Below the pieces are notes generated by a model. That model was not told the origin of the DNA. It saw only the letters and a list, made by a program, of their open reading frames with translations, and searched no databases. Position numbers and translations under genes: made by a program. This document shows, piece by piece, positions 10,891 through 27,469 of a stretch of DNA of 49,579 nt. The DNA comes from Escherichia phage SRT8. The DNA lies in sequence record MF996376. One strand, written 5' to 3'. The first letter of the stretch is position 1; each line of letters opens with the position of its first letter.

Positions 10891-10912
10891 TCGGTGTTTC
10901 CATTATACAGGC

Positions 10913-10936
10913 GAAAAAAAACCCGCGCAAGGCGGG
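10913..10936 (-). terminator. Intrinsic terminator after gene I (hairpin CCCGC-GCAAG-GCGGG plus T8 on the minus strand)
   Basis: Hairpin and T-run; almost the same hairpin recurs at 13052-13075. Confidence 0.6.
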
Positions 10937-10942
10937 CTAATT

Positions 10943-11545
10943 TTATGCCATATCTTCAGCGTAGGAACCTGCGGAGAAGGTCGCCCCGCCGACAGTTCGT
11001 TCGCCATACGGAAGCGGGATCGGATACCCCGCCGCCGTTGTGTTCACCGCCCCGCCGAAAGCATAGGACGGCTTGTTCTTGCTGGATTGCACTTCGAAAT
11101 TTTGCCCCCCAGCTTGCGGGCTAATCATCTGCATTACGCCACCCAAAACCATAGCGCCGCCCATCATAAATGCGGAGGAAGCAAGCGCCCCCATCGCCGC
11201 CAGCGACGCGCCAGCCGTAAAGAATGCCGCAACCATAATCGCCGCACCTAACACGATTTGAAACAGACCGCCCGACTTTGAACCAGTAGGGATCGGGAGG
11301 ATTCGAACTTCGTTAGCGCAAGCGAACTCTTTTTCGTTGTTGTGACTAATGTTCTTCCCGTCAACGAATACGGCGTACTTCATTCTGGAACCGACTTCGC
11401 TTTGCATGTAGTCTTTAAAGCCCTCCACCTGCGACGACAGCGCCCGAATTGCTTCCGGGTATGAATCAACAGCCAGATAGTGAAAGACGCCGAAACGACG
11501 CCCCAGCGAACCAGAAAGCTTTATTTTCTTCAATGATGTATTCAT
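10943..11545 (-). CDS. Tail assembly protein (lambda gpI-like)
   Basis: Position after K; ATG at 11545 overlaps the K stop as ATGA; hydrophobic C-terminal half. Confidence 0.7.
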   Translation of the reverse strand: MNTSLKKIKLSGSLGRRFGVFHYLAVDSYPEAIRALSSQVEGFKDYMQSEVGSRMKYAVFVDGKNISHNNEKEFACANEVRILPIPTGSKSGGLFQIVLGAAIMVAAFFTAGASLAAMGALASSAFMMGGAMVLGGVMQMISPQAGGQNFEVQSSKNKPSYAFGGAVNTTAAGYPIPLPYGERTVGGATFSAGSYAEDMA

Positions 11546-12258
11546 AGTTTCAGATCCTTGTGTCTGCAAATCATAACAGTGTGCTCCTGATACCAACCGG
11601 AATATAAATCTTCACGCGACAACTTGCCGAACGCGTGATGCAAGATCTTGTTATCGCCTACGTAAATCCCGGCGTGGTTCCATACTGGCGATTGTAGTTG
11701 CATGATAATCATATCGCCCGGCCTCGGTTCCTGATTGGTCGGGACGAACCCTTCGGCCTGATAAAGATCCTGATACAGATTTTCCCCGAACTCAGGTTTC
11801 CACCATTCATAAGGTTTTCTGTAATCGCCTAATTCGATTCCGTGTTCTTTGTGGTAAGCCATAACTAAGCCCCAGCAATCAAACGAGCCTAGCGCCCACG
11901 GCCTACCAATCAGCGGAAGCGTTGACGGTTGAACGAATCGCATATCACCTTCAGGCAAGCTAACGATAGTCCACATGACGCCCATTTCGTTACAGACACA
12001 TGTATCGTGCGGCGAAGGTAGTGTAGTTGCCCCGTCGCCAGTATGACTATGAACCACACTAACCAGTTCGCCACATTCCAGCGCGTCGGCGTACTGTTGC
12101 GCGTTCATTTCGAAATGGTTTTCCGGGTCGTCGTGCATGTTGTCGATCCTGTGGTAACGCTGAACCCGGCTTTTTTGGGTGACAACCCCGCAACACTCAG
12201 CGGGGTAAGCGTCCTGCGCGTGGCGCATGATTTCGATCTTAACTTTTGCATTAATCAT
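11542..12258 (-). CDS. Tail assembly protein (lambda gpK-like) with JAB/MPN and NlpC/P60 domains
   Basis: HSHTGDGATTLPSPHD JAMM-like motif followed by a Cys/His peptidase-like region; ATG at 12258 (track start 12291 is TTG). Confidence 0.75.
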   Translation of the reverse strand: MINAKVKIEIMRHAQDAYPAECCGVVTQKSRVQRYHRIDNMHDDPENHFEMNAQQYADALECGELVSVVHSHTGDGATTLPSPHDTCVCNEMGVMWTIVSLPEGDMRFVQPSTLPLIGRPWALGSFDCWGLVMAYHKEHGIELGDYRKPYEWWKPEFGENLYQDLYQAEGFVPTNQEPRPGDMIIMQLQSPVWNHAGIYVGDNKILHHAFGKLSREDLYSGWYQEHTVMICRHKDLKL

Positions 12259-13008
12259 TGCATTTTCCTCTGTAGTGAAGCGACGGCACAACCACCGAAA
12301 TCTAATTCCTGATCCGCGCCGAAGCGAAGTTTACATGCCGTTAATGTGCCGGGGCAAAAATCTTTCGACGGGTCGTCTACCGGATTATTGTCTCTGTCGA
12401 AGTAATTCGTTCCGGCATACGCGCAACCCTTGCCGCTTTTATACCATCCACGTTGCGCCCAATAACAAACGCTTTGCGACGTGCGCGGCGGGATCATAAT
12501 CCCATCCATATCATAAGGTGATGTGAGATCGAATCGTGCTAACGTTGAATCGACGTAATCCGGGCGCTCAATGTAGTAAACCAGCTTTCGGAACGCGCCG
12601 TCTTCGATCGTGCCGTACGTTCATTAAATCTTTCGGCGCAACCCATATCGTAACCTTAGCTTGCATCATGCCATTGTAGGAACGGATTAGCGCGGCAACC
12701 TGCGAATCAATGTTAGAGATCGTAAGCTTAGGTTTTCCGGCCTTTCCGTTACTGGTGAACGAGATCCCGGAAATGCCAAAAGGTCGCGCCCCGTATTGTT
12801 CGCCCTGAAAGGTGATTTCTTTCGGCGGCAATACACCAGTTTCACGCGCTTGCATAAGTTCTTCAGGCGTGTACGCGATATTCTCAGCATGGAATCGGTA
12901 GACCTGCGCACCGAACTTCTCGCCGTCAATCTCTACCAGCGTGATAATCTCGCCGGGGTAAAGGGATTGCAGGCAGTTTTCCCATTTTTCTTTACCAGTT
13001 TCAGCCAT
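12255..13008 (-). CDS. Minor tail / tail tip protein (lambda gpL-like), reading frame interrupted by a 1-nt frameshift near 12620
   Basis: N-terminal part in ORF 12568-13008; Cys-rich C-terminal part in a second frame open from 12620 to 12255; intact frame restored by removing one A at about 12620-12621. Confidence 0.7.
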
Positions 13009-13051
13009 TTTATTTACTCCATTTGTGAATGTGCAACCATTCTACAGCCAT

Positions 13052-13075
13052 AAAAAAGCCCGCGCAAGGCGGGCT
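13052..13075 (-). terminator. Intrinsic terminator after gene M (GCCCGC-GCAAG-GCGGGC plus T6 on the minus strand)
   Basis: Hairpin and T-run; followed by a TAGAAT -10-like box before gene L. Confidence 0.6.
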
Positions 13076-13089
13076 ATTGTTAGATAGTG

Positions 13090-13443
13090 CTATTCCATAG
13101 ATGTAAACTGTTCGGAAAACGTAGCGCGGATTTCGTTCAATCCCGGCGCGATCGGGGTAAGCGCAACCGAACCAGACTTCACAATGAACAAGCCTAATTG
13201 TTCATCTGGCGGAAGCCATAAAAACGGCTTCAGTCGATGCCCGGTACAAAATGCCTTAACCGCCTTCCAATCATTGCCAGCGTATACGATCGTAAACTCC
13301 CGGCGCTCAGTGTTAAATCCAGACGATGCAACTTGCTTGTAGCCGTTACCGAAAACGACTTCCCTGTCGTTGTTCTCGGTAGTCATTGCGCCGCCGCTAT
13401 TCTGAATTTGTGTACACCATGTAAATTCGTCTAGCGTCGCCAT
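13090..13443 (-). CDS. Minor tail protein (lambda gpM-like)
   Basis: 117 aa, between tape measure and L as in lambda. Confidence 0.7.
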   Translation of the reverse strand: MATLDEFTWCTQIQNSGGAMTTENNDREVVFGNGYKQVASSGFNTERREFTIVYAGNDWKAVKAFCTGHRLKPFLWLPPDEQLGLFIVKSGSVALTPIAPGLNEIRATFSEQFTSME

Positions 13444-13446
13444 TGA

Positions 13447-16152
13447 TTAGCCTCCTGTTTTTTCCATAATGTAGGTGTAAGCTTTGCCACCTTGTGAAAA
13501 CGATTCGTTAATCATTTCGTTGCAGATCATACGAATGCCCTGCTCAAGCCCTTTTGGATCGTTGCCGTTATTCACATCGACTCGCATCCCGCTAACGTCG
13601 ATATAGTTCCCAGCGCCAGCGCCACCGCTTGAAAGCGTTAACCCTGCTCCGCGCGAAGCATTGCCAACTGAACCGCCGTTCGCATAACCGCGCATTAGTC
13701 GGTTTAGGTTGCCAACCCCGATCCGGCTTGTCGCCTCCTTCGTGAACACGAATTCACCGCCGTGAACTACGCCTTTCGGTTCGTACTTGCCGCCGTTCCC
13801 GGTATAACCGCCATTAGCAAACCCGCCCGCAAAACTCCACGTAGAGCCGCCCATCATACCAGAAATCGAATTGAAGATTACCATCTTAGTAATCATCTGG
13901 ATAATCTGGCTAATGATGCTCTTAGCGAAATCTGCGAAGTTCGCTTCACCGGTCATGAGGAATTCCGCCATCATATCAGACATTCCCGACAGCGCGTTCG
14001 AAGCAATGTTCCCTACATTATCATACATGTTAGTTGCTTCTTCGCCGTAGGTGGCAAATGCTGATTGCGCCCCAGCCAGCCAATCGCCGCGTTTTTCGTC
14101 TTCGGCTGCGTAGTATTTTTCTTGCGCTTCCTGCATACGCTTGAACGTGTCGTCCTCAAGACTTCCGCCCTTCGCTAACCAATCCGCTTGCATCTTCTGG
14201 CGTTCCGCTTCACGTTGTGCCGCAAGTGCGCCCATGCTTCGCGTATCGTTTAGCGTCTTCGTTGCCTGTTCCATTTGCAACACGAATTTAACGGAATCTT
14301 GATTCAACTGGTTTAGCCGTTCCTGCTGCGCAATCTGATCGCCTAGTTCGGCTTTCTGTTGTGCGCGGGCTAGTACCTGTTTCTGTTCCAGTAATAACGC
14401 TTGCTCCGCATTTGTTAACTTGCGTGTGGATTGCGCTTCCTCCAATACCTGAATCTGTCCTTCGACAGCCCATAGTGCTTTACGCTGTTGCGAAATGCGA
14501 TCGTTAATGCTGGCGTGTTTTTGCAGTGTCACTAACTGCGCCTGAAGCACGTAAAGCTCTTTGTCGAGTTGCTCGGTAGGTGCTCGCGTGATACCGCCAG
14601 AACCTTTCTTGCCGCCCTTCGTGCCTTTCTTCTTCTCCGCCTCCTTCGCCTGTTTCACTTCGTCTTCGCGAATCTTGATTAACTTTTGAGCGTTGGCGAT
14701 TGCTTCTTTATTGCCGGAAGCCGCGATCGCGTTGGCGTTCTTTCTCGCGTCGGCTAATGCCTTCTCAGCCCCGGCGACACGATCCGCCGCTAAATATTCT
14801 TTGTTAATCAAATCGACGGTTTTCGCTACATGCTTGTTACCTTCAATTCGCGCCGTGTTAACTTGCTGATTAAGCGTTTTAGCCTGTTCCAGCACTTTTA
14901 CAATCGGGTCAACTGCGCCGCCCAGCGCGACAGACTGTTTCCCTTCGTTCGCCCCGGTGTAATAGTTTTTCACCTCTTCCGCCGCATCGCTCCACGCGTC
15001 TTTGATTTCCAGAACCTTTAATCGGTGCTGTTCAATGTCAACGTTTAGCGCCGTGAAATCGCCCGATTTCTTGTACTGTTCGACACGCTGTCGCGCTTCG
15101 TCATAGCTGATCCCGACGTCTAACATTTTCTGTAACGACTCTTCCGCGCCGTCTTTCGTCGAAATGAAAGCTTTGATTACTTCGTCTGCTGATTGGTCGG
15201 CGGCTTTCGCGATCCCCATAATGTTCAAGGACAACCGATCAGCGTAATCGCCAGTAATCCCAAGTTGTGTATTGACTGCGGATTGAGTTTCCTTGATCTC
15301 GTTGCGGGTACTGACAACCTTATAAATCAGTGCTCCCAGCGCCCCAACCGTAACGCCCAATCCGACGTTAAGCGGATTCAGGAAAGACAACAGAACTTTG
15401 AACGTATTACCCAGCCCGCCGAAGCTGTCTTTAATCTGTCCGCCCTGCTGGATTGCTACCAACCAAACAGGCATACCGGAAGCAAGCGACGTTACAACGT
15501 CCGTAATCTGCGCCGGAAGCATTCGCATTGCTTGCGCATATTGCCCGGCAGAAACGCCAGCCAGTTTTAAACCCTTCGCCTGATTATTCAACTGCGCGAT
15601 AAATGGCGCGGCCTGTTCGCTTACGCCTAATTGCGCGGCCTTCAGTTCTAAAACTTCTTGCGCCGTCTTGCCAGCGAATAAGGCTTGCTGTTCTAAGCTC
15701 TTGATGAAGTTTTGCCCGGCCTTCGTTGCCACCTCCTTCTGGCGTGATGCTTCCGCCGCCGCTCGACCTTCAGCCGTTAACGCTTGCTGATTCTTGCGCA
15801 ATGCAACCTCTTGCGATTCCAGAACTTCGCCAAGCCGGAAGAATTCGTCGTCCGGTACGACGCCTTTTTTCCAAAGTGCGTCTAACTGCTTCGCCGTTTC
15901 GCGTAAGCGGTTCATGCTCTTGACTGTGGGATCGATAGCCGCTACAACGTTGGAGTATTCCTTCGCCTGTTTCGACAGTTCACGCGCGTGATCCTTTGCC
16001 TTCTGTTTCGCAACTTCCGTTTGATTTAGAAATTCATGGGTCGAGTCCGCCGCGCCGTCGTTCGCCTTCGCAAATTCACGAAGAGACTTTACAGCCCGAT
16101 CGACTTGCGATACGTCAACACCTAGCGACAATCCCGCGTATTGTTCCGCCAT
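13447..16152 (-). CDS. Tail tape measure protein
   Basis: 901 aa, long Ala/Gln/Glu/Lys-rich coiled-coil stretches, Gly-rich C-terminus; directly after the G/GT chaperone genes. Confidence 0.85.
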   Translation of the reverse strand: MAEQYAGLSLGVDVSQVDRAVKSLREFAKANDGAADSTHEFLNQTEVAKQKAKDHARELSKQAKEYSNVVAAIDPTVKSMNRLRETAKQLDALWKKGVVPDDEFFRLGEVLESQEVALRKNQQALTAEGRAAAEASRQKEVATKAGQNFIKSLEQQALFAGKTAQEVLELKAAQLGVSEQAAPFIAQLNNQAKGLKLAGVSAGQYAQAMRMLPAQITDVVTSLASGMPVWLVAIQQGGQIKDSFGGLGNTFKVLLSFLNPLNVGLGVTVGALGALIYKVVSTRNEIKETQSAVNTQLGITGDYADRLSLNIMGIAKAADQSADEVIKAFISTKDGAEESLQKMLDVGISYDEARQRVEQYKKSGDFTALNVDIEQHRLKVLEIKDAWSDAAEEVKNYYTGANEGKQSVALGGAVDPIVKVLEQAKTLNQQVNTARIEGNKHVAKTVDLINKEYLAADRVAGAEKALADARKNANAIAASGNKEAIANAQKLIKIREDEVKQAKEAEKKKGTKGGKKGSGGITRAPTEQLDKELYVLQAQLVTLQKHASINDRISQQRKALWAVEGQIQVLEEAQSTRKLTNAEQALLLEQKQVLARAQQKAELGDQIAQQERLNQLNQDSVKFVLQMEQATKTLNDTRSMGALAAQREAERQKMQADWLAKGGSLEDDTFKRMQEAQEKYYAAEDEKRGDWLAGAQSAFATYGEEATNMYDNVGNIASNALSGMSDMMAEFLMTGEANFADFAKSIISQIIQMITKMVIFNSISGMMGGSTWSFAGGFANGGYTGNGGKYEPKGVVHGGEFVFTKEATSRIGVGNLNRLMRGYANGGSVGNASRGAGLTLSSGGAGAGNYIDVSGMRVDVNNGNDPKGLEQGIRMICNEMINESFSQGGKAYTYIMEKTGG

Positions 16153-16171
16153 ATGTTATTACCTCCAGATA

Positions 16172-16198
16172 AAAGAAAAGCGCCCGAAGGCGCTTATT
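16172..16198 (-). terminator. Hairpin (AAGCGCC-TTCG-GGCGCTT) with T-rich tail after the T-frame ORF
   Basis: Inverted repeat read directly. Confidence 0.45.
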
Positions 16199-16520
16199 TG
16201 CTGTTATGGTGCATCATTTCTAATGCTTTCTGTTCCATAACACGAATATCGTTTAACACCTGCTCTTCATCGTCTATTTTATAGATTTTGAACAACATAG
16301 GCAAAACATTATAATCAAGACCGTAAGCCCCAGCGCCCGCGCTTCTCCACTGCGTACCCATCGCACAAAACACGTCATACGATTGGATCATATCTTCAGG
16401 GAAATAAAGTATTTCCGGTTCCTCGCCTTCGTAGTCAGAACGGGACAGGCCGACAGATCTTAACTCTTCATCTGTGGGCGGTTTCTGGTACATCAGATAA
16501 ACCGCCCGCTTTAGTTTTTT
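16194..16520 (-). CDS. T-frame extension of the tail assembly chaperone, expressed as a G-T fusion by -1 ribosomal frameshift
   Basis: Frame is continuous with G in the -1 frame from the slippery site to the stop at 16194. Confidence 0.7.
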   Translation of the reverse strand, partial: KKLKRAVYLMYQKPPTDEELRSVGLSRSDYEGEEPEILYFPEDMIQSYDVFCAMGTQWRSAGAGAYGLDYNVLPMLFKIYKIDDEEQVLNDIRVMEQKALEMMHHNSK

Positions 16521-16825
16521 ACGCGTTGCCCTGCCAGCGCTCGAAGGTAGGTTGACGTAAGAGCCAGCGCCGCGCCCGGATAGTAGCGGACAAGCATTTC
16601 GGCGTTTTCTTGATTAAACTCTTCTTCCAGATCCCAGCCGGAAGCCAATTCCATAATGAAATCGTGGTCTTTGATATCTTGTCGATCGTAAAGCTCCTGC
16701 ACTTCGTTAGACGGGCGATGCTTCACTTTGAAAGTGATTTTCGCTTCGTCGCCGTTCGGCATGATGAATTTTACGGGTAGTGCGAAGTCAGGCAGTGCTC
16801 CCAAAGTAATTTTGAATTTAGCCAT
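16511..16825 (-). CDS. Tail assembly chaperone (lambda gpG-like)
   Basis: 104 aa between major tail and tape measure genes; ends in slippery site. Confidence 0.75.
   Translation of the reverse strand: MAKFKITLGALPDFALPVKFIMPNGDEAKITFKVKHRPSNEVQELYDRQDIKDHDFIMELASGWDLEEEFNQENAEMLVRYYPGAALALTSTYLRALAGQRVKN
16514..16520 (-). other. -1 programmed frameshift slippery heptamer A-AAA-AAC at the end of the G chaperone gene, with stem-loop at 16476-16507
   Basis: Heptamer in the zero frame spans codons AAA AAC before the TAA stop; 9-bp stem GGGCGGTTT/AAACCGCCC starts a few nt downstream. Confidence 0.75.
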
Positions 16826-16847
16826 TGTTGATTCTCCTGATAGGTAA

Positions 16848-16870
16848 TAGCACGAATTGCTAAAACAGCG
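16848..16870 (-). promoter_or_regulatory. Palindromic element (aatagcacgaattgctaaaaca) just upstream of the G chaperone RBS
   Basis: Consensus match; follows the hairpin at 16906-16930. Confidence 0.45.
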
Positions 16871-16905
16871 TCGAGCCGATTTGATACGATGATTCTACAG
16901 AAAAG

Positions 16906-16930
16906 AAAAAGGGGAAGCAAGCTTCCCCGG
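16906..16930 (-). terminator. Intrinsic terminator after the major tail protein gene (GGGGAAGC-TTGC-TTCCCC plus T-run)
   Basis: Hairpin and T-run on the minus strand. Confidence 0.6.
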
Positions 16931-16937
16931 AGTGATG

Positions 16938-17594
16938 TTATTCGGATGCAAGGTAAGTAAATTTACCTTTCAGGGAAACGGACAAGGAAACAGTTTCCAT
17001 CTCGTTTACCTGCGTTTGTGGGATATCGTTAAACGACAGAACCCCAGCCCAAAGGCGCATTTCTTTAGCCTTCGGAACGAACATTCGAAGCGGCGTTACT
17101 TCGCCGGATTCGTCCAGACCGCGAAGGATCGGGTAAATCGCGTTATCAAATTCGTGCGCGAAGCTGTAAGTAAGCGACACGGCAGATTTGAAGGTCGGTA
17201 ACTGCTGTTCCTGATCGTCAGAAAGGCACTGGTAAGTGTAATACTGCTGCTCGCCGCCGTCCTGCCCGATATCCTGTACGCAAGGGATCTCAGTCCATGC
17301 GGTAACAGGTCGGAACGAAGCCGGGTTAGTACCTGTTGGGAATACGTTCGCGTTGGTAGTGTCGATACCCTCAAGCGTTACGCTTACATCTTCGGATACA
17401 GCCTTAACACGAAGGACGCGATCCAGAAGACGCCCCCACGCGGCGGAAGTAACTAACACATATTGACCGACAGTTACGCCGGAAGTTGACGCAACAGAGA
17501 AGACCGGATCGGCAGCGTTTGAAACGTTGGTTGCCTCGATCTCAGCGCCCAGCGTGGAACCGATAAAAATTTGTGAACCATTAGGAAGGTGCAT
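16938..17594 (-). CDS. Major tail protein
   Basis: 218 aa, strong AAGGAG RBS, followed by a terminator, immediately upstream of the G/GT chaperone pair. Confidence 0.7.
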   Translation of the reverse strand: MHLPNGSQIFIGSTLGAEIEATNVSNAADPVFSVASTSGVTVGQYVLVTSAAWGRLLDRVLRVKAVSEDVSVTLEGIDTTNANVFPTGTNPASFRPVTAWTEIPCVQDIGQDGGEQQYYTYQCLSDDQEQQLPTFKSAVSLTYSFAHEFDNAIYPILRGLDESGEVTPLRMFVPKAKEMRLWAGVLSFNDIPQTQVNEMETVSLSVSLKGKFTYLASE

Positions 17595-17606
17595 AATTGT
17601 AACTCC

Positions 17607-18017
17607 TTATTTTTTGTCTTTACGAACATAGAATCGGACGGGATAAGACCAGCCGCCGACAGATTTTTGTACCGGGTGAACCTTTCCACCGTCTACGATA
17701 TAACAATCGTTAATCAGCATTTTACCATCTTCGAAAAATTCCGCAATATCACGCGCTAACATTCTAACTTTATCCATTCCCAAACCCGGCGCGAAGTGGA
17801 TAGAGATCTGAACCATTCCAACCGCGTATTTGCATTTGCGGGACAACCCGACGAATACCGTGTCCGCTTCTTTGTAGTCGAACTTCAGCCACGTAGAACC
17901 ATCAGCGGGAGGATCGAACGGCACACTTTCGTAAGCAACAGGAAAAACATATTCCGGGGCGCTATTAATGAAGTTGCTTAATTCATTACGCGCCGCAACT
18001 GCTAGATCATAGTGCAT
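17607..18017 (-). CDS. Putative tail terminator / tail completion protein
   Basis: Position between neck genes and the major tail gene; start moved to the internal ATG at 18017 to avoid a 120-nt overlap. Confidence 0.4.
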   Translation of the reverse strand: MHYDLAVAARNELSNFINSAPEYVFPVAYESVPFDPPADGSTWLKFDYKEADTVFVGLSRKCKYAVGMVQISIHFAPGLGMDKVRMLARDIAEFFEDGKMLINDCYIVDGGKVHPVQKSVGGWSYPVRFYVRKDKK

Positions 18018-18450
18018 TTTTAGCCCTCGATTGTCTGATCGCGTCCGCCATGAAAGAGCGAAGGCGAATTGCCACCACGCCAACGACGCCAGCCGGGGCT
18101 TGTTTCGAATGCCCGTACTCAAGCGCATTAGCGTAAATCAGCATGTTAGAAAAATAGATTGACGTTATAGCCGCGCCACGTCGAAGAGTGAACACGCTGG
18201 CTACACGCTTCCCGTATGCGATCGTTTGTCCGCCTGATTTATCATATTGGTTTAGAGCGTACATAGGCGGAGCGTTAAAAGTTATCTGCCAGTTAGCTCT
18301 AAATCGCCCTGTATCGACCGGAGAACCCATTACTAACGCCTTGTGAACCTCTTCAATGAAGATTCGTAACGTGTCCTCCAAGCCGTTCCCAGCCGCTTTA
18401 ATCCACGCGTCGATTGACGCGTGAAATTGCCGAATCTGATAATTAGCCAT
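18007..18450 (-). CDS. HK97 gp10-like tail-component (neck) protein
   Basis: VDTGRFRANW motif resembling the gp10-family signature; position. Confidence 0.5.
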   Translation of the reverse strand: MANYQIRQFHASIDAWIKAAGNGLEDTLRIFIEEVHKALVMGSPVDTGRFRANWQITFNAPPMYALNQYDKSGGQTIAYGKRVASVFTLRRGAAITSIYFSNMLIYANALEYGHSKQAPAGVVGVVAIRLRSFMADAIRQSRAKNAL

Positions 18451-19230: not shown

Positions 19231-19249
19231 TTCATTACCTCCAGATATG

Positions 19250-19271
19250 AAAAAGGGCGCATATAGCGCCC
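19250..19271 (-). terminator. Hairpin (GGGCGC-TATAT-GCGCCC) plus T-run on the minus strand
   Basis: Read directly. Confidence 0.55.
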
Positions 19272-19280
19272 GGACTCGGT

Positions 19281-19586: not shown

Positions 19587-19605
19587 GTTGGTTTACTCCT
19601 GATAA

Positions 19606-19636
19606 TAAAAAAGGGACTCAAATTAATGAGTCCCTA
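19606..19636 (-). terminator. Intrinsic terminator after the major capsid gene (AGGGACTCA-TTAATT-TGAGTCCCT plus T-run)
   Basis: Strong hairpin and T5 on the minus strand. Confidence 0.65.
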
Positions 19637-19647
19637 TATTAAGGCAA

Positions 19648-20625
19648 TTACTCGGTGACTGCAAGCCCGGTAATCAGGACAATCGTCAACGGACGGTAGA
19701 TTGTCAGGCCAGTACATTTAGAAGTGCAAGGCACTTTGAAATGCAGGTCTTTCGGCTGTGCTGGCAGCATGTTAAACGCTTCCGGGATCTCGATAGACAT
19801 ATTCATCGGATCGTATTCGTAAACCAATGCGCCTTTTGTGCCGGAGCCGTCGATATCTTCCAACTCTGCGATCGCTTCGATGGTGATATTACCGTTTTGC
19901 TTCTGGAAATATTCAAGATAGCTTTCAGTAGTATCAGTCATGCGAACGGTCAGAACTTTACGCATAGACGGCGGAATCAGAATGTGGGTCGCGCGGTGTG
20001 CGCCCATAGTCAGCGTTTCGATGGTTTCGATTGCTGCGGTCAATTCTTCTTCTGCGTTTTCCGGCAGTTTAGTAGTAACGCCGCCAGTGGTAGAAGTCCA
20101 GCCCTTAGACGTAATCTTCGTAATGTTCGGATGATTGAACACGCTTACGATTTTGTGCGGAGCGGAGCCTTTGAAGACCAGACGGTTTACAAGCTGATCA
20201 TGCGCAAGCTGTGCCGCGTTCGCTTTGCGATTCGACAGAGATTTGCCAGTCGCTTGACCTGCTTTGATTTCGTCAATAGAAATCAGATACGCATTACCCA
20301 GGCGGAACACTTTACCGAATTCGCTTGATGCCATTGCATCTACCAGCGGCAAATCATCGGTATAATCGGCGATAATTTGCGCGATACCGACTTTATCAAA
20401 AGTCTGATATTCGAAGGTTTTATCAACTGGGGAAAGGTCAGACGTAACCGGGAAAACGCGAAGTGCGGAGCCAGCCGGGTAATCTTTTTCGTAAGACTGC
20501 GACTTCAGCTTATTAAGTTCCTGCGCCGTCCAAATGCCTAGCGTGTCGGCGTCCGCTTTAGTGCCGCGCATTTGCAGGTGATTAGCAACGACGGAAGCTT
20601 CGAATTCATCATATTTTTTAGCCAT
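19648..20625 (-). CDS. Major capsid protein
   Basis: 325 aa, very strong RBS AAGAGGAAA, flanked by terminators, position after scaffold/decoration genes. Confidence 0.65.
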   Translation of the reverse strand: MAKKYDEFEASVVANHLQMRGTKADADTLGIWTAQELNKLKSQSYEKDYPAGSALRVFPVTSDLSPVDKTFEYQTFDKVGIAQIIADYTDDLPLVDAMASSEFGKVFRLGNAYLISIDEIKAGQATGKSLSNRKANAAQLAHDQLVNRLVFKGSAPHKIVSVFNHPNITKITSKGWTSTTGGVTTKLPENAEEELTAAIETIETLTMGAHRATHILIPPSMRKVLTVRMTDTTESYLEYFQKQNGNITIEAIAELEDIDGSGTKGALVYEYDPMNMSIEIPEAFNMLPAQPKDLHFKVPCTSKCTGLTIYRPLTIVLITGLAVTE

Positions 20626-20676
20626 GTTTTCATTTCCTCTTATTGGTGAAAAGCCGTTAATTGATAACGGCTTTAT

Positions 20677-20696
20677 GATAGCACTTTTTGTTAAAG
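20677..20696 (-). promoter_or_regulatory. Palindromic element (atagcactttttgttaaag) with hairpin 20651-20675 upstream of the capsid gene
   Basis: Consensus match in inverted orientation relative to the gene. Confidence 0.45.
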
Positions 20697-20714
20697 CGTC
20701 AAACTGTTTTTATG

Positions 20715-21497
20715 TTATGGTTCGGGCGGCGCTTCCGTGACGGTAATCGGGCGCGTGATCGTGTACTTGCCGGAGTCGTTCGCCGTCCATACGATGTTAG
20801 TAGTGCCAGCCGCTACGCCAGTGATTAAACCCGTATCCTGATCTACCGTCGCGACGCCTTCGTCTTCCGAAGAGAATTTACCAGTTCGATCCGGCGCGGC
20901 TGGAGTGATAGCGATTAACCTTGCCTGAACGGTTGCCCCCACTTCGATCGAATTCGGGTTAATGTTCATTCCGCCACTTTGCACAACCAAAAACGCGTTA
21001 ATACCCTGAACTAATTGCACCTCAAAGATTGCAACGTTAGGCTTGATAATCACTTTACCGCCAGTGAATCGCCAGTTAACCAGCGCCCCGCCAGAAGTGC
21101 CGACAGTGCCGTTTGACTGAATTCGAACGCGCTGTCCGAAAGTTGGCGTAATATCCGTGTTGTTACCGTAAACCCACACGCGACCATGCGTTACGACGTT
21201 AATCACATCGCCTACGTTATACATCGCGTAACCGTCCGCCGATTCATGCGGCGCATAGTGATGCGTCATTGCGATCCCGTATGGCACATTTTGAGTAGAA
21301 ATCAGGCTTTGACGAACGATTTTATGCCCGCCCGGATCTACTGACTCAACCCACACGGCGCAACCTGAAAAGACGTGTTCGCCGCCGATGCCTTCACCCT
21401 GCCCGCCCACAACACAAGCGCCGTCGATGTTATAGTCCGACGTGTCGGAAAGACAGCCGGGAAAAGCTTTTAGAATGACGTTTCCATAATCTGACAT
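20715..21497 (-). CDS. Capsid decoration-like protein with C-terminal bacterial Ig-like (Big_2-type) domain
   Basis: C-terminal ATVQARLIAITPAAP...VTEAPPEP region resembles Ig-like domains; N-terminal half is paralogous to ORF 21560-22036. Confidence 0.5.
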   Translation of the reverse strand: MSDYGNVILKAFPGCLSDTSDYNIDGACVVGGQGEGIGGEHVFSGCAVWVESVDPGGHKIVRQSLISTQNVPYGIAMTHHYAPHESADGYAMYNVGDVINVVTHGRVWVYGNNTDITPTFGQRVRIQSNGTVGTSGGALVNWRFTGGKVIIKPNVAIFEVQLVQGINAFLVVQSGGMNINPNSIEVGATVQARLIAITPAAPDRTGKFSSEDEGVATVDQDTGLITGVAAGTTNIVWTANDSGKYTITRPITVTEAPPEP

Positions 21498-21514
21498 ATT
21501 TTATTACCTCCAAT

Positions 21515-21546
21515 AAAAAAGGGACTATCCAAAAGGATAGCCCCCA
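21515..21546 (-). terminator. Hairpin (GGGGCTATCC-TTTT-GGATAGTCCC) plus T6 on the minus strand
   Basis: Read directly. Confidence 0.6.
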
Positions 21547-21559
21547 TATTAACGGTTAA

Positions 21560-22036
21560 TTACAGTTGCATCAACTGAATTTCTACCAGCTTCAGATCTT
21601 GATAAGTGGTGAAGCCGCCCGCGTAAGTCCACGTAGTTTCAATCGCGCCGTCTGCTTTCTGCTGTCCGTCAACGTCGAATTTAACAGGAGTGCCGAACGC
21701 CGGGGCGGTGGAGTCTTTAGAGATAACCCAAACGCGACCGGAAGTCATAACGTTTAGACCGCCGCCAGCTTCGTAATACATCTGGCCGTTTTTGCCTTTA
21801 GTCTGGAAGTGTGAACGAATCGCGATACCGTAAGGAACGCCCGCCGCCGACATTGGCTTCATAACTTTGTGACCATCAACCGCTTGAACGCTGTCAATCT
21901 GTACCGCGACGCCAACGAGGATATCAACGTCACCATTCAGGACACACGCGCCGTCAATGTTATATCGGGAGGTGTCCGCAACCATACCCGGAAGCGCGAT
22001 CGCCATATCTTTCTGATAGCTTGCTGCAATTGCCAT
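21560..22036 (-). CDS. Capsid-associated protein, paralog of the N-terminal domain of ORF 20715-21497
   Basis: Shared motifs YNIDGACV, VPYGIA, GRVWV between the two proteins. Confidence 0.5.
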   Translation of the reverse strand: MAIAASYQKDMAIALPGMVADTSRYNIDGACVLNGDVDILVGVAVQIDSVQAVDGHKVMKPMSAAGVPYGIAIRSHFQTKGKNGQMYYEAGGGLNVMTSGRVWVISKDSTAPAFGTPVKFDVDGQQKADGAIETTWTYAGGFTTYQDLKLVEIQLMQL

Positions 22037-22049
22037 AATTTAAATCTCC

Positions 22050-23156
22050 TTACTTGTTAAGTTTATTCAGGCGGGAATTCGGAGTCACTTCGGCTTCGTC
22101 TTCTTTCTTGCCCGGTTCGCTTGCTGCGTCGCCTTTGATGCTTTGACGCTGTGACGCCATATTATCACAATCTTTCGCGAAGTCGAAGGCGTTGTCGATG
22201 TATGCGTCAGATTTCGCGGAAACATCCTTCCCGGTAACAGCTTTCAGGAAGGCAACTTTGATCGCTTTAGCGTCCATACCGTCACACTTCACACCAGCTT
22301 CGGAAGCGGTAGCAATCAGCGCGGTAAGTTCGGCGGCGTCGGCTTTGTGCTTTTCGACTGCTTCAGTAATCAGCGCCGGAATGCCGTCTACTTTAGTTTT
22401 CAGTAAATCGCGTTCCGCTTCCAGACCGTCGGCCTTGCCCTGAATAGTTGCCACTTCACCGTTAAGCTTTTCGATGTGCGCCGCTACACTTTCCGGCACT
22501 TCCACTTCTACGGAGTCGATTTTAATTTTCTTCATTACGTGATCCTCTTTGTTTGAATTAACGTCGTAATCATACGGGAATTCTTGTTCGCTATCAAGGT
22601 TTAATTTAGCGATTCCCGCACGGCCTTTGAATACCATAGCAACATGATTCACGCGGATTTTTGTCTGTACGGCGTCGAACTTAACCCAGCCTTTCGGGAT
22701 TACTTCGTCTTCTTTCATATCCTCTTCGAAGATATATTCGCCCGTTTCGTTGGAACCCCAACCCGGTTTTTCGATATCTTCGGACGTGTACCCGACAGAC
22801 AGTTCCGCCGCCATTTTGCGCTTGGCCTTCTCGATCGCGCGTTGGCTGTAAATCGACATAGGCACTTCGACGCCGACGCCGTTCGGGATACCGTCGCCAG
22901 CGCATGAACCTACGACAACCTTTTCCGCGTTCTCAGGCGTTACGGTTACGTGACCGACCGTTACAGGCTTGCCCGCATACGTCGCCAGCGATTCAGGATC
23001 GAACACTTCTGACGCCGGGCGGAATTCTACGCGATCGCCGAATGGCGTTTTATAAGTCTGTGCGCCGATACGGGCGACAACCGGGCGATCGACTAAAAAG
23101 CCGTGTTCGTCAAAGTGAGCTTTGATCTTGACGCTATCGAATCTTTGCTTTGCCAT
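22050..23156 (-). CDS. Putative capsid scaffolding / prohead core protein
   Basis: 368 aa with a coiled-coil, Ala/Lys/Glu-rich C-terminal half; lies between the minor head protein and decoration genes. Confidence 0.45.
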   Translation of the reverse strand: MAKQRFDSVKIKAHFDEHGFLVDRPVVARIGAQTYKTPFGDRVEFRPASEVFDPESLATYAGKPVTVGHVTVTPENAEKVVVGSCAGDGIPNGVGVEVPMSIYSQRAIEKAKRKMAAELSVGYTSEDIEKPGWGSNETGEYIFEEDMKEDEVIPKGWVKFDAVQTKIRVNHVAMVFKGRAGIAKLNLDSEQEFPYDYDVNSNKEDHVMKKIKIDSVEVEVPESVAAHIEKLNGEVATIQGKADGLEAERDLLKTKVDGIPALITEAVEKHKADAAELTALIATASEAGVKCDGMDAKAIKVAFLKAVTGKDVSAKSDAYIDNAFDFAKDCDNMASQRQSIKGDAASEPGKKEDEAEVTPNSRLNKLNK

Positions 23157-23159
23157 TAA

Positions 23160-23924
23160 TTAATCTCCTATCTGATTGAAATCTGGAACAACCCAGCAAC
23201 GGCAACCGTATTCTTCGCCGGGGAATATGTGATTACTGTTTACCGGGATGCGCTTACCCTCCCATTTTACGTGTTTTTCACGTTCGCGTAAATCCATCAT
23301 TCCGCGCCAGAAGTAGTGGGTAACTTGTGCGTCCTTCAGGCGTTGACGCATCATTCGGCTGTTCCATGTAGTCACGATCCCGGATGCCCGATTACGCGCC
23401 CACGAAGAGTAAACCTTATAACGCTGATTGGTTTCTTCATAAACCCTTTCGGCTTCGTAGCCGTTCGCCGCCGCGTCGCGTAGCTTCCCGGTAAAGTCGG
23501 TAATAATGTTCGCCGCGAATTTGCGTAATGATGTTTTCGTCTGCGCTTCCCATAGATCGTACTGCGGCGCGTACCAGCTTTCTCCCATATTAGCACCAAT
23601 CAGGACAAGCAACATGACGGCCTGATTTTTTGAACCTCCAGCACTCTTTGCGATCTTAATCCACTGTTTCGCGTTGAACTTATAGATCGTGAACGCCAGC
23701 GCCGGAAGTGCCGCGAACATTGATTGCAACAGGTCTTCGGCGTAGTCAAGCAAGCTTCGCTCTACCTGCTCGATCTGGCCTTCGTCCGCATCCCATTTCA
23801 TAGGATTTAAACTCTCCTGCATACGGGCGACAATCGCGCCCGTAAATTGCTCCATAGAGCGACTTAATTGTCGCTCGCTGGATTCAGGAAAGCGCCATGT
23901 TTTAGCGATTCCGTTAATCTTCAT
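23160..23924 (-). CDS. Minor head protein (head morphogenesis, SPP1 gp7-like)
   Basis: Immediately downstream of the portal gene, overlapping its end. Confidence 0.5.
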   Translation of the reverse strand: MKINGIAKTWRFPESSERQLSRSMEQFTGAIVARMQESLNPMKWDADEGQIEQVERSLLDYAEDLLQSMFAALPALAFTIYKFNAKQWIKIAKSAGGSKNQAVMLLVLIGANMGESWYAPQYDLWEAQTKTSLRKFAANIITDFTGKLRDAAANGYEAERVYEETNQRYKVYSSWARNRASGIVTTWNSRMMRQRLKDAQVTHYFWRGMMDLREREKHVKWEGKRIPVNSNHIFPGEEYGCRCWVVPDFNQIGD

Positions 23925-25230
23925 TGTCTCCGCCTTCTTCGTTTTCGTGAATTACTTCACCGACTCCCGGTTCCTTTTCGGCCTTCTGTTGCTCTTCGGT
24001 GCGCTTCTTCAGTTCCGTGTGATTCAGGTCTTTAAGCTTAAACATCGGCGCGATAGATTGCAACGTGTCGCGGGCTTCTTCTAAATCAATCATCTGATCT
24101 TCCAGTGCGCCCCGGATAGACTCAACGTGATTTTTCGTAGTCTCGGACGCTTCCTTCTCTGAAGGCATGGAAAGCGGTTCGAACTCGACAGACCATTCCT
24201 GTTCGTGAATTACGAACGGCAAAAGGAATTCTAAGATCGGGCGGTAATGCTCTTCGCGCTGTCGGTCAATCAGCTTGTAAAACGTTTCTAGCGCCGTGTT
24301 CTGGCTTGCGCTAACGCCGCCGACGTTCTTGTTTTTCAAGATGATTTCATGAATGCCGGACAGTGACACAACACGATCGAACTTATTTTGCAGGAATTCA
24401 GAAACGCCGTTAACGTCAGAATTCAATACTTCGTATTCTTCGTCGTTCGCGTCAATACCGATCGCCTTACCTACGCCGGAATTATCATCCACCTGCGCCA
24501 GCCGCAAACGCGCCGCGTAAGCTGCTTCGTCGTCGTCGCACATTTCCGCAAGCCCTTTCACCTTCCATACTGCTTGTTGTTTACGGCGTAGAAGTTGCGT
24601 TGCCAGTTCTTCGCAATATTCGTAATCGTAAATCGCTTCAATCAGTGACTTGTTAAGGAATGGTGCGCCCCATCCGTTGTTACGCTTGCGCTGTTGTGGC
24701 GGAAGTCGTTCACCGTCTAGGATCTTGATTCGCGTATAGTGAACCTGATACTGCGTAAGACCATCGCCCGGACTAATTTCATAAAGGACAGGTTCGCCGT
24801 AACGGACGTTCCGCGCGTTGGTTTCTTTCTTCGCGATAGCAATTTGATCGCGATCGTAAACCCTGATTCCTTCCAGTACGCCGCCTTCTTTCGCTGGCGA
24901 AGTAAGCTTGCGCCCGTCGTTGATAATAGCCACGATCCCGGAACCGCCATAAAGACGACGCCACGCTAACGCATCAACGATTAGACCTTCGATTTCCAGA
25001 TCGTCCCACACTGACCGGAACGCCGCTTCATCCTTAACGCCGGAAACTTTAAAGCCGGGCGATACCATTTCTTCTGGAACAACGTCGATAATACGTCGCG
25101 CTAATCCGTTGTTTTCGTACATCCACCCCAGCCCGTAAGACTGCGCCCCGGTAACGTAAAACGGCTTCGGCGCGTTGTCGCCTCCGTTGTTGAAAATCTC
25201 GTTATACCCATCGTGCTTTACAATTTTCAT
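23914..25230 (-). CDS. Portal protein
   Basis: 438 aa directly after the large terminase gene; acidic C-terminus. Confidence 0.75.
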   Translation of the reverse strand: MKIVKHDGYNEIFNNGGDNAPKPFYVTGAQSYGLGWMYENNGLARRIIDVVPEEMVSPGFKVSGVKDEAAFRSVWDDLEIEGLIVDALAWRRLYGGSGIVAIINDGRKLTSPAKEGGVLEGIRVYDRDQIAIAKKETNARNVRYGEPVLYEISPGDGLTQYQVHYTRIKILDGERLPPQQRKRNNGWGAPFLNKSLIEAIYDYEYCEELATQLLRRKQQAVWKVKGLAEMCDDDEAAYAARLRLAQVDDNSGVGKAIGIDANDEEYEVLNSDVNGVSEFLQNKFDRVVSLSGIHEIILKNKNVGGVSASQNTALETFYKLIDRQREEHYRPILEFLLPFVIHEQEWSVEFEPLSMPSEKEASETTKNHVESIRGALEDQMIDLEEARDTLQSIAPMFKLKDLNHTELKKRTEEQQKAEKEPGVGEVIHENEEGGDNED

Positions 25231-25247
25231 TCTGTCTTTCCTCCAAT

Positions 25248-25274
25248 AAAAAAAGGCTGGAAAATTCCAGCCTT
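25248..25274 (-). terminator. Hairpin (AAGGCTGGAA-TTTT-CCAGCCTT) plus T7 between terminase and portal genes
   Basis: Read directly. Confidence 0.55.
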
Positions 25275-25287
25275 AATTATACCCGCT

Positions 25288-26859
25288 TTATTTACGCTTT
25301 ACCATTCCGGCTAAACGCTTCATTCGCTCGACAGGATCGTCGATTGTCAGAAGTTCGATGTTCGCCGCATCCATGAAGTTATCGACAATATCGTCGTGCG
25401 GGTGCGTATCGTCGTATGTGAACGCGCTATGCTCGGCGATGATTTCGGACAGCATAGGGTGTTCTTCCGGTAGCACCACACGCCCGGCTTTGATTACTGG
25501 CTGCGCATCCATCGCGCGAGTAACTTTATCTTTGTTACGCTGCAACGGCGTGATAGCAACAGGAGTTTTCTTCTCTAAGTTCTGGATCAAGCCCGTACCG
25601 CTGGCCTTATCTTCGACGTAAATCTTTCTCAGTACCCCCATTGATTTATTATGCCTCCACGCCGCGTTAACGAACGCTTTAAACTGCGTTTCCATTTCCG
25701 GCGCTTTCCATTTGCCGCGAACGCCGTCGATAAAGTACACCTTATCGTTTTTCTTACCCCATAAACAGAAGACAGTGTAGTCGTTTAGCTCGCCTGTTTT
25801 CTGCGCGGTATCGGCGGTAATGAAGCGGTAATCGAACTTGCCCGGTTCTGGTTCGTCGGCTTCTAAGCTGTTGCCGTAGTACGTCCACCACTCGGAATTA
25901 AACACCGCGCCGCCCAGCGCGATCGGACGCTGTTGATACTGCGAATCAAAGGTGTATTGGTCGGCCTCACGTAGCGCCATTAAGTCGTGAACGGTTTCCT
26001 TTTCAGGCCAAAAGCTATAATGCTTAACGCCGTCGATTAGCACGTATTCAGACGAAAGCACATCCTTTTCGAAGTGCGGTTGTAACCATTCAGGAAGTGA
26101 TTTCCCGTATTCCTCAGTTACTAGCGCCGGAATTGAAATCTGATCGAATTCTATCCCCATCCCGCCGTTCATCATGAACCATGTAGAATCCTGTGCGTGT
26201 AAGCGCTGCTGTATGGCGATAATCGGCGTTTCGTTGTGCATTCGTCGGCTTCGGATTGTGTTCTTTAAAAGCGTATGTGTGCGCTCTCGTTTTACCTTAG
26301 AAAACATATCGTCCGGCTTGTCGATATCGTCAAGCATTACCATACCGGAAAAGCCAGGAACCATATAACCGCCACGCGAACCAGTAATGCGACCGCCCGC
26401 CGCCGCTGAAATAAGCTCAAACCAGACCTTTCCCGCATTGTTTAGCACCTGCATTTCTTCATCTTTCGACGTGCCGAACGCGCAAGGCCATAGCTCTTGG
26501 AATTCCGGCGAAGAAATGATTTCGCGGACTCGCTTACTGTTACGCTTTACAAGGCTGTCGGCGAATGACACATTCAAGTTTCTGACCTTCTTCAGCTTCA
26601 GCATTGCATAAACTGGCAAGTGGATCGAAAAGACTTCCGTTTTCCCCGAACCCGGAGTCACGTTAAAGATCGTGTTACCGCGTCGCCCGGCGATAATCTC
26701 TTCGACTTCGTGGCACAAGTAAAGGTGATGCCAGTTAGGTAAAAATTGCTGTGCCTGTATCAACTGGAACCAGATCCGAATCATCTTTTCGAAGCTGGCT
26801 TCCGACATTTTCTTGATCGCAAGCTTTTGTGTTGCGTCCAGTTCTTCCCAAATTAACAT
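25288..26859 (-). CDS. Terminase large subunit
   Basis: 523 aa; N-terminal ATPase with GSGKTE P-loop-like motif and C-terminal nuclease-like half; position before portal. Confidence 0.8.
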   Translation of the reverse strand: MLIWEELDATQKLAIKKMSEASFEKMIRIWFQLIQAQQFLPNWHHLYLCHEVEEIIAGRRGNTIFNVTPGSGKTEVFSIHLPVYAMLKLKKVRNLNVSFADSLVKRNSKRVREIISSPEFQELWPCAFGTSKDEEMQVLNNAGKVWFELISAAAGGRITGSRGGYMVPGFSGMVMLDDIDKPDDMFSKVKRERTHTLLKNTIRSRRMHNETPIIAIQQRLHAQDSTWFMMNGGMGIEFDQISIPALVTEEYGKSLPEWLQPHFEKDVLSSEYVLIDGVKHYSFWPEKETVHDLMALREADQYTFDSQYQQRPIALGGAVFNSEWWTYYGNSLEADEPEPGKFDYRFITADTAQKTGELNDYTVFCLWGKKNDKVYFIDGVRGKWKAPEMETQFKAFVNAAWRHNKSMGVLRKIYVEDKASGTGLIQNLEKKTPVAITPLQRNKDKVTRAMDAQPVIKAGRVVLPEEHPMLSEIIAEHSAFTYDDTHPHDDIVDNFMDAANIELLTIDDPVERMKRLAGMVKRK

Positions 26860-26900
26860 TATCGTGATCCTATAGGGCGGACTAGCCGCCCGGTTAACTG

Positions 26901-27416
26901 TTAGAGCATATCAAGAACGCTGTTTACCGCGTCCTTCATCGCGTCTTCTGTGGTGGCAACAGCCGCCGCGCTCGACGTGTTGTCGATGTTAATCGACGCT
27001 GGCTTGTCGATGCCTAAGTCCTTGCCGATAAACGAAGCGTTAATGATGCCGTTTGCCGCAAGCTGGAATTTCTGTTCGTTGATAACGGAATCGACGAATT
27101 CCATAACTTCGGCATAGTCCGGTTCGGATCTGTACCGCGCGATCGTTCCGTCGCTCAGGTTGCAGAAAAGCTTAAACCCGGTAACGGTAAATACTCGCGG
27201 CTTATGCACTAACGACTCTTCTACATCGCCCTGAAAACTGGCAGTCTCAGCCGCTTTGATTGCGTTGTCTTCCGCCCATTCGAAATACTTAACCGCCAGA
27301 TCGAACAACTGTTTCGGCGTAGTCTGTCGTGTCTTGCCTAACACTGTTCCGAACTCTTTCCGGTATAGCTCTTTGAAGTTACCACCCTGAACGACGGGCG
27401 CTTTTTCCTGTTTCAT
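26901..27416 (-). CDS. Putative terminase small subunit
   Basis: Position directly upstream of TerL; start reassigned to ATG at 27416 with GAGGA RBS. Confidence 0.5.
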   Translation of the reverse strand: MKQEKAPVVQGGNFKELYRKEFGTVLGKTRQTTPKQLFDLAVKYFEWAEDNAIKAAETASFQGDVEESLVHKPRVFTVTGFKLFCNLSDGTIARYRSEPDYAEVMEFVDSVINEQKFQLAANGIINASFIGKDLGIDKPASINIDNTSSAAAVATTEDAMKDAVNSVLDML

Positions 27417-27432
27417 AGATTCGTCCTCACTG

Positions 27433-27450
27433 TTTAACATTTCGTGCTAT
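27433..27450 (-). promoter_or_regulatory. Palindromic element (ATAGCACGAAATGTTAAA) upstream of the TerS RBS, preceded by a TAATAT box and terminator
   Basis: Late-gene arrangement as for J and L. Confidence 0.45.
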
Positions 27451-27469
27451 TTTAGCATATTACAGGCAC

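Follow-up and report, generated by a model that had tools for sequence, protein, structure and literature searches.

The late region of Escherichia phage SRT8 (sequence record MF996376) raises the question of whether its co-directional head and tail genes are expressed as one long transcript or as a series of shorter units. We analysed a window of 49,579 bases, which is the whole viral contig (IMGVR_UViG_2974594196_000001) of a T1-like siphovirus of the Drexlerviridae. A first-pass annotation had proposed graded attenuation with re-initiation, with intrinsic terminators after several late genes and a -10-like box behind three of them. Our analysis suggests that the late region is probably a chain of about ten short co-directional units joined by overlapping terminator-promoter modules. 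The proposed attenuation with re-initiation is partly supported by this result, in which terminators delimit short units and most boundaries have promoter-like elements, but the class of the boxes had been misread, the box before TerS had been misplaced, and most promoter-like sites (the one before G and those that precede a terminator) had been overlooked. The main alternative is that one or a few long late transcripts are graded by read-through of leaky hairpins alone, the -10-like boxes being non-functional by-products of A/T-rich flanks, stop codons and ribosome-binding regions.

The minus strand carries the structural genes, in a block running from ~27.4-27.5 kb down to 6.4 kb. The head half runs TerS, TerL, portal, minor capsid, protease, decoration (deco), Ig-like decoration (Ig), major capsid (MCP) and a 101-aa gene (orf101), followed by four head-tail connector genes, major tail V, chaperones G and T, the tape measure gene (TMP), M, L, K, I and J. 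The gene names given earlier match the annotations of T1, BrunoManser and IME347. Late-region identity is 99.5% to Citrobacter phage IME-JL8, 96% to Escherichia phage BrunoManser and ~76-78% to T1 and IME347. Rfam and tRNA scans of the window returned no family and no tRNA. Homologous junctions were collected from T1, BrunoManser, IME347 and 22 viral contigs found through the M protein (64-75% identity); added to these were four more distant phages, NJS1 (Webervirus), SU57 (Braunvirinae), LF82-10 and Chapo, and 64 further contigs found through TerL (37-93% identity), ~90 relatives in all. The junction between gene X and the next gene Y is written X>Y.

Predicted terminators at the late gene boundaries

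At each boundary, a terminator hairpin and a predicted host sigma-70 promoter would overlap within a module of 40-60 bp. Direct observation covers the elements in the sequence, the constancy of their geometry, their conservation and the covariation of the hairpins. Three junctions have the -35 within the hairpin, and in five others the distance between -10 and hairpin is 0-2 nt.

Nine late intergenic gaps contain a G+C-rich hairpin followed by a T-tract on the coding (minus) strand, with folding energies (dG) of -10.5 to -18.9 kcal/mol. These nine have at least five T among the eight bases directly after the stem (5-8 T), whereas the hairpins at Ig>MCP and J>p101 have a weak T-tract. Of the ten minus-strand terminator-like matches with the highest scores, nine are intergenic, gaps making up 4% of the region (P ~3e-12). 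The terminators described earlier after I, M, the major tail gene, orf101, the capsid gene, the decoration gene and TerL were all recovered as a hairpin with a T-tract (Table 1), and one more, outside the earlier list, follows the T chaperone gene. A terminator had also been claimed after TerS, but the hairpin there has no T-tract. Among the genes followed by terminators are those for decoration, capsid and major tail, whose products are the most plentiful in the virion; together with a terminator upstream of TerS that stands between the early block and the late genes, this fits dose-setting and insulation.

The recurrence of hairpins in two families, reported by the first-pass annotation, was borne out. 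One is a 46-nt family at 10900-10945, 13037-13082 (85% identity) and 27455-27500 (67%); in the other, a 24-nt stretch (1378-1401) is the perfect reverse complement of 27471-27494 (inverted pair I10, 100%). Since hairpin, T-tract and box all fall within the similarity, it is the module as a unit that recurs. Covariation of paired bases was seen in relatives: when 20 hairpins from upstream of TerS were folded to a consensus, seven pairs were kept, and four of the seven showed compensatory double changes. For the M>L hairpins, MAFFT alignment shifted the 5' arm by one column between lineages, and per-sequence folding was therefore used instead.

Predicted terminator-then-promoter modules before G, L and J

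The motif CTGTAnAAT occurs three times in the window, each time 12-13 nt past a terminator hairpin (10902-10910, 13039-13047 and 16892-16900), although the count of this 9-mer alone is not significant (3 against 1.14 expected). The copies before J and L agree with the boxes that had been placed after terminators there, the copy before G had been overlooked, and the box given for TerS is not conserved. These boxes had been read as having the upstream TG of an extended -10, but the TG stands at -14/-13 rather than -15/-14, and its T varies in relatives (CTG, ATG, CCG, GTC). With the register one base off and the T unconserved, the J, L and G boxes were rejected as canonical extended -10 elements. 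Their hexamers are TATAAT before J and TAGAAT before L and G, and each has a -35 candidate exactly 17 nt upstream that is kept in relatives (TTGCGC before J and L, TTGCTT before G). In this arrangement (type 1), the hairpin loop and 3' arm would supply the -35 (TTGCnn), and the 3' arm and T-tract would form the 17-nt spacer that leads to a TAnAAT -10.

The relatives retain this geometry while its letters change. The loop TTG appears as TTGCGC, TTGTGC, TTGCTT, TTGCAC or TTGCGT, and 17 nt past it stands TATAAT, TAGAAT, TACAAT, TAATAT or TAAAAT; the spacing persists while stem, T-tract and spacer differ between lineages. At I>J, G-T-A-n-A-A-T is invariant in 22 of 22 distinct relatives, and hexamer position 3 alone varies (positions 1, 2 and 4-6 being fixed), which is the profile expected of a sigma-70 -10 hexamer. 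At V>G, 18 of 19 distinct relatives have a TTG in the loop and, 16-17 nt downstream of it, a -10-like box; in SU57, the remaining one, a TGn extended -10 takes their place. The -10 box is missing at M>L in three relatives (L022, SU57 and LF82-10), all of which also lack the loop TTG. Conservation specific to the -10, a TTG held at exactly 17 nt and the joint loss of both elements argue against boxes that are by-products of flanking composition.

Several other observations concern these junctions and their genes. The V>G module is 76% complementary to 43966-44003 (+), including an exact TGTAGAATCATCG, antisense inside an SbcD-like exonuclease gene; the site may be an antisense promoter or a chance match. 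In two metagenomic relatives (L015 and L016), the I>J module is replaced by a 563-nt insert (about 5475-6040) with an opposite-strand open reading frame (ORF) and, at its end, just before the J ribosome-binding site, an inverted repeat copy. The tail-tip gene L (12250-13008, minus strand) has a 2-bp deletion at ~12617 relative to BrunoManser (ATGAACG--TACGGC against ATGAACGAAGACGGC), leaving a 146-aa ORF and an out-of-frame remainder; either the sequencing or the assembly is at fault here, or an essential gene has a frameshift. The tail-tip gene J contains a 54-nt motif in three consecutive copies at 7974-8225, with 99-nt spacing and 63-74% identity.

The TerS junction and its lateral tail fibre counterpart

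The box earlier assigned to TerS, GCCTGTAATATGC (27455-27467, minus strand), is not the conserved -10 and was rejected, its core TGTAATAT reading TGCAATAT in T1 and TGGAGTAT in IME347. The likely TerS promoter is the canonical extended -10 TGCTAAAAT, which lies 7 nt further downstream. TGnTAnnnT is found 8-16 nt past the T-tract in 44 of 52 distinct relatives; the conserved element is TGnTAnAAT and takes the form TGCTAAAAT in the window. We scored it with a position weight matrix (PWM) built from approximate textbook consensus frequencies, and TGCTAAAAT fell in the top 0.2% of window positions. Relatives whose TerS hairpin has a loop TTG carry TATAAT at 17 nt, and in those with TTCG, TACG or TAAT loops the -10 lies ~7 nt further on and the TGn motif is present. 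This alternation between a loop TTG with a -10 at 17 nt and a TGn extended -10 further downstream also argues against non-functional boxes.

The lateral tail fibre gene has a counterpart on the plus strand, with a promoter-like site TTGCCG-17-TGcTAAAAT (the extended -10 equal to TGCTAAAAT) at 1411-1439, an extended -10 at 1431-1439, and an inverted direct repeat (DR) at 1445-1465 before the gene. Both junctions would form a second type, a terminator followed by an extended -10 (TGnTAAAAT), without a -35 at TerS. A TGn extended -10 is present at TerS, the lateral tail fibre gene and the capsid promoter. As to the TerS gene itself, its start in the mechanical ORF list is 27440 (minus strand), an ATG inside the repeat element without a Shine-Dalgarno sequence; the ATG at 27416 (minus strand), with GAGGA ahead of the start codon, is likelier and agrees with relatives.

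Predicted promoter-then-terminator and terminator-only junctions

A PWM scan revealed a second arrangement, absent from the first-pass annotation, in which a promoter-like -10 ends 0-2 nt ahead of the hairpin at five junctions (type 3; before portal, Ig, capsid, orf101 and p101). Of 13 hairpins, six begin within 5 nt of the end of the -10 of a high-scoring promoter-like site. The binomial P is 2e-8 relative to the genome background and ~1e-4 by hand calculation with an A/T-matched background fraction of 1.4%; the six are these five junctions and a borderline site before the I>J hairpin. The abutting geometry is conserved at TerL>portal, Ig>MCP and MCP>orf101. At TerL>portal, no more than 0-3 nt separate a -10-like box from the hairpin that follows it in 29 of 29 relatives in which a script located the hairpin and a box in range, and in the most distant lineages the box is TGaTAAACT. 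At capsid>orf101, the TTG stays 17 nt from the box across lineages with differing capsid C-termini and spacers, and the sites homologous to Ig>capsid are annotated as promoter and terminator in the T1 record. The TTG-17-box of deco>Ig is present in T1, IME347 and L013 and unclear in TLS-like lineages; the deco and Ig genes are paralogous, and the deco>Ig junctions were extracted by ORF logic.

A start 6-9 nt past such a -10 would fall in the 5' arm of the hairpin. Folding gave -13 to -21 kcal/mol for read-through RNA and 0 to -7 kcal/mol for RNA begun 6-9 nt past the -10 (J>p101: -6 to -10). RNA from the junction's own promoter could then not fold the terminator, and only RNA arriving from upstream could.

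At orf101>htc1 and T>TMP, a terminator stands without any promoter-like site in the window, and none lies in the top 0.4% of PWM scores in relatives. The T>TMP loops of 16 relatives are TTCG, TACG or GTTT, and a -10 box occurs in none of the 16. Because these terminators have no promoter, htc1 and TMP would be reachable only by read-through, which fits graded attenuation; such junctions (type 4) would act as pure attenuators.

Two observations concern the leaders. At terminator-only and promoter-then-terminator junctions, the terminator tail leads directly into the ribosome-binding site, and one leader is reused at 16150-16178, 21495-21523 and 25228-25256 (minus strand), consisting of a T-tract, then ATTGGAGG or ATCTGGAGG, a spacer and ATG. 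Other promoter classes were compared by eye. A resemblance to T7 promoters (TATAGGGA after the capsid gene) was dropped for poor fit and for want of a phage polymerase gene, and the sigma-28 and IHF consensus sequences were dropped for poor fit. To our knowledge, T1-like phages encode no RNA polymerase or sigma factor.

Table 1. Coordinates of predicted modules, hairpins and repeat elements in the window
Feature	Position	Strand	Description
V>G module	16892-16928	-	hairpin 16911-16928, TTGCTT in loop and 3' arm; 17-nt spacer includes the T-tract; TAGAAT 16892-16897
M>L module	13039-13075	-	hairpin 13057-13075, TTGCGC in loop and 3' arm; 17-nt spacer; TAGAAT 13039-13044
I>J module	10902-10938	-	hairpin 10920-10938 with TTGCGC; 17-nt spacer; TATAAT 10902-10907
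TerS-upstream terminator	27475-27492	-	AACCCGC-TTCG-GCGGGTT, T7 tail, dG -11.3; between early block and TerS
Extended -10 TGCTAAAAT	27449-27457	-	likely TerS promoter, no -35; 7 nt downstream of the rejected box
DR element AAATAGCACGAAATGTTAAAC	27432-27452	-	palindrome TAGCA-N5-TGTTA, centred on the predicted TerS start
Lateral tail fibre counterpart	1380-1465	+	hairpin 1380-1397 identical to the TerS one
TerL>portal	25253-25304	-	TGGTAA-17-TATAAT (25276-25304), weak -35; -10 ends 1 nt before hairpin 25253-25274
deco>Ig	21520-21574	-	TTGATG-17-TAATAT (21546-21574) adjoining hairpin 21520-21545; PWM tail 0.03%
Ig>capsid	20650-20702	-	TTGACG-16-TGcTATCAT (20675-20702) on an inverted DR; adjoining hairpin 20650-20674 with short T-tract; PWM tail 0.002%
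capsid>orf101	19612-19664	-	TTGCAG-17-TAATAT (19636-19664) adjoining hairpin 19612-19635
J>p101	7413-7465	-	TTGGTA-17-TGgTAAAAT (7437-7465), overlaps J stop codon; 2 nt before hairpin 7413-7434; poor T-tract in the window; PWM tail 0.005%
orf101>htc1 terminator	19255-19271	-	T-tract leads straight into Shine-Dalgarno
T>TMP terminator	16178-16195	-	cUUCGg loop; Shine-Dalgarno directly after
TerS>TerL hairpin	26875-26891	-	dG -10.5; then TATAGGATC; no T-tract, not a canonical terminator
Inverted DR TTTTAGCAATTCGTGCTATTA	16845-16865	-	between V>G promoter and G ribosome-binding site
DR-like element AAATAGCACAAAAGGTTAAAC	10869-10889	-	J leader, overlaps Shine-Dalgarno; conserved in nearly all relatives

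Predicted action of the modules and the long-transcript alternative

From these elements we infer promoter activity, start sites, termination efficiency and a coupling of termination to restart. Incoming transcripts would be stopped or thinned at each boundary, and transcription would restart at once, either by independent initiation or aided by polymerase left on the DNA after intrinsic termination. The outcome would be separate mRNA doses for abundant products (capsid, decoration and major tail) and scarce ones (tape measure and tip proteins), and the terminator upstream of TerS would insulate the late genes from the co-directional early block.

Several points weigh against this chain of units, and some of them favour one or a few long transcripts. 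The -35 elements before G, L and J are weak, with three of six bases fitting the consensus. The default promoter scan required at least four of six matches per hexamer and so missed -35s embedded in loops; it did not call these -35s, and its promoter-like counts in the region were not above those of shuffled sequence. The total count of terminator-like sites in the region was not above shuffled sequence either. TTGC-N18-GTAnAAT has four matches in the window against 0.15 expected, three of them being the G, L and J modules, but the pattern was derived from the same sites that it counts; the independent evidence for the loop-TTG/-10 geometry is its conservation in relatives. The fourth match (49427-49455, plus strand) has no hairpin and lies in promoter position upstream of the start codon of a putative regulator gene.

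Coding constraints add further doubt. Several of the type-3 boxes share bases with a stop codon or with coding sequence (TAA-AAT; TTG supplied by Leu and Val codons), and J>p101 is largely coding sequence, so that its conservation is confounded. A/T-rich sequence is common upstream of terminators, and part of the conservation may therefore have other causes. The two terminator-only junctions clearly work promoterless. The curated T1 record has one late promoter only, that of the capsid gene. The authors of the TLS study, using stricter criteria, did not affirm comparable late units for TLS and accepted three convincing sigma-70 promoters genome-wide (PMC11447400). A literature search on T1-like phages found no transcriptome, start-site or 3'-end data. 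If every promoter is of the plain sigma-70 kind, why these genes are expressed late would be left unexplained. Given the base-specific conservation of the -10, the fixed spacing, the coupled loss at M>L and the alternation at TerS, we nevertheless consider it unlikely that long transcripts graded by read-through alone account for the late region.

The 21-nt repeat, early cassettes and a putative regulator

A 21-nt direct repeat, aaATAGCACnnnTTGnTAAAA, of unknown function has been described in phage TLS (PMC11447400, section 17), and repeats of this type are abundant in the window. Of 29 matches to the repeat in the early regions, 20 are followed at a distance of exactly 22 nt by a -10 hexamer. 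About 22 early cassettes (28700-35400, minus strand; 36400-41750, plus strand; 43600-49500, minus strand; for example 35023-35040 and 38548-38565) share the layout ATAGCAC-N3-TTG(C/T)TAAAA, 22 nt, TATAGT/TATAAT/CATAAT, without a -35 and with the start codon ~75 nt from the repeat. The palindrome TAGCA-N5-TG(C/T)TA is centred near -42 of the early promoters, the position at which lambda cI and other class II activators act. Most early cassettes also have a stable hairpin between the repeat and the predicted start (dG -11 to -17, z -3 to -6), with the -10 in the loop or 3' arm or abutting the 3' end (for example 29792-29855, 38563-38624 and 43585-43646). The arms differ between copies with complementarity kept, and, because no T-tract follows, these hairpins would be formable only by upstream read-through RNA. 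The late copies of the repeat, at TerS, capsid, G, J and the lateral tail fibre gene, cover the predicted start or follow it.

The contig ends (49414-49579 and 1-377) split a 148-aa gene, spanning 49507-49579 and 1-377, that encodes a candidate Cro/C2-like helix-turn-helix protein; Pfam and PDB sequence searches gave only sub-threshold Cro-like helix-turn-helix matches (Pfam P22_Cro, 23.9 bits, below cut-off). Its predicted promoter, TTGCGT-17-TATAAT (49427-49455, plus strand), is followed by an inverted repeat copy at 49476-49493. In this divergent end region, the repeat copy lies at ~-42 of the leftward helicase promoter and at ~+20 of the regulator promoter, a layout that resembles an autoregulatory switch. 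At the regulator>primase junction (361-436, plus strand), a repeat-like site (361-379) precedes a 33-nt hairpin (385-417) whose loop contains TAGAAT; a T6 tract and a Shine-Dalgarno sequence come next, and the primase gene starts with the ATG at 437. The junction thus has the form of a terminator whose loop encloses the -10 of a promoter.

These observations raise a broader alternative, in which the overlap of hairpin and promoter is an organising rule of the whole genome under a single phage regulator. The Cro/C2-like protein would activate the early units, where the repeat lies at ~-42, and hold the late units off, where it lies over or after the start; replication would multiply the ~30 sites per genome, titrate the protein away and so turn the late units on. 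A single repeat-binding regulator for early and late units is speculation, and we regard this scheme as distinctly improbable.

Similarly improbable is a role of the hairpins after transcription, with protection or processing of 3' ends setting segment-specific mRNA half-lives and the promoters, if real, being independent: hairpins without a T-tract at unit boundaries (TerS>TerL and ~17 early-region modules) and arms that covary between copies, so that structure rather than sequence matters, would suit it, but late hairpins with 5-8 T directly after a G+C-rich stem bear the signature of intrinsic terminators, and a pure stability element would not need the tight coupling to -35 and -10.

Relation to known systems and significance

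The core idea of a chain of late units has already been proposed for T1, and our reading is a refinement rather than a discovery. The T1 late region was described in silico as a set of "transcriptons" (Roberts, Martin & Kropinski 2004, as summarised in PMC11447400, section 17). SRT8 shares with T1 its family, gene order and terminators at homologous junctions: the T1 record (AY216660) carries terminators before TerS, after decoration, on both sides of capsid, after orf46, and after the chaperone, M, I and J. The SU57 record has BPROM promoters annotated at V>G, M>L and I>J. The summary of the T1 transcriptons given in the TLS paper mentions neither a loop -35 at 17 nt nor a -10 that adjoins the hairpin, nor does it mention a switch to an extended -10 in the absence of a loop TTG. 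The finding as first written was of modest significance, since it restates the published in silico T1 model; what our comparison would add are the fixed geometries, their family-wide co-variation and a base-level map.

In bacteria, tufB-secE and further operon pairs are established cases in which a terminator overlaps the promoter of the following unit, and the overlap has been proposed to link expression of both units (PMC6735719). As here, the terminator overlaps a co-directional downstream promoter within tens of bp and the arrangement is conserved. The bacterial cases differ in being host chromosomal and experimentally supported, whereas the present ones are 8-10 predicted junctions of several geometries within 21 kb of a virulent phage. 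Escherichia coli polymerase shows recycling termination and facilitated re-initiation on model templates, which has also been inferred genome-wide; the phages discussed by those authors are only ones that use their own polymerase (PMC11347151; bioRxiv 10.1101/2023.02.10.528045). By analogy, a recycling polymerase would offer a possible route from a hairpin terminator to a sigma-70 promoter 10-40 bp away.

The lambda late operon is similar in its long co-directional head and tail block, with SRT8 having lambda-like tail genes V, G, T, M, L, K, I and J. Lambda uses a single late promoter, and Q antitermination reads through its internal terminators. In SRT8, unlike lambda, most junctions have a promoter-like element of their own, and no antiterminator is annotated in T1, BrunoManser or IME347, for which no dedicated homology search was made.

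Should the predictions hold, the modules would be very compact natural parts, 40-60 bp long, able to terminate and restart transcription while sparing their own transcript, and such overlap modules might be useful as insulators in synthetic operons. For the T1-like phages themselves, a recent re-annotation found promoters to be "unexpectedly" few and listed a 21-nt repeat without a known function (PMC11447400). The present map assigns a predicted start, stop or attenuation to each junction, with starts predicted at base level, and bears on how T1-like phages may time and dose their genes.

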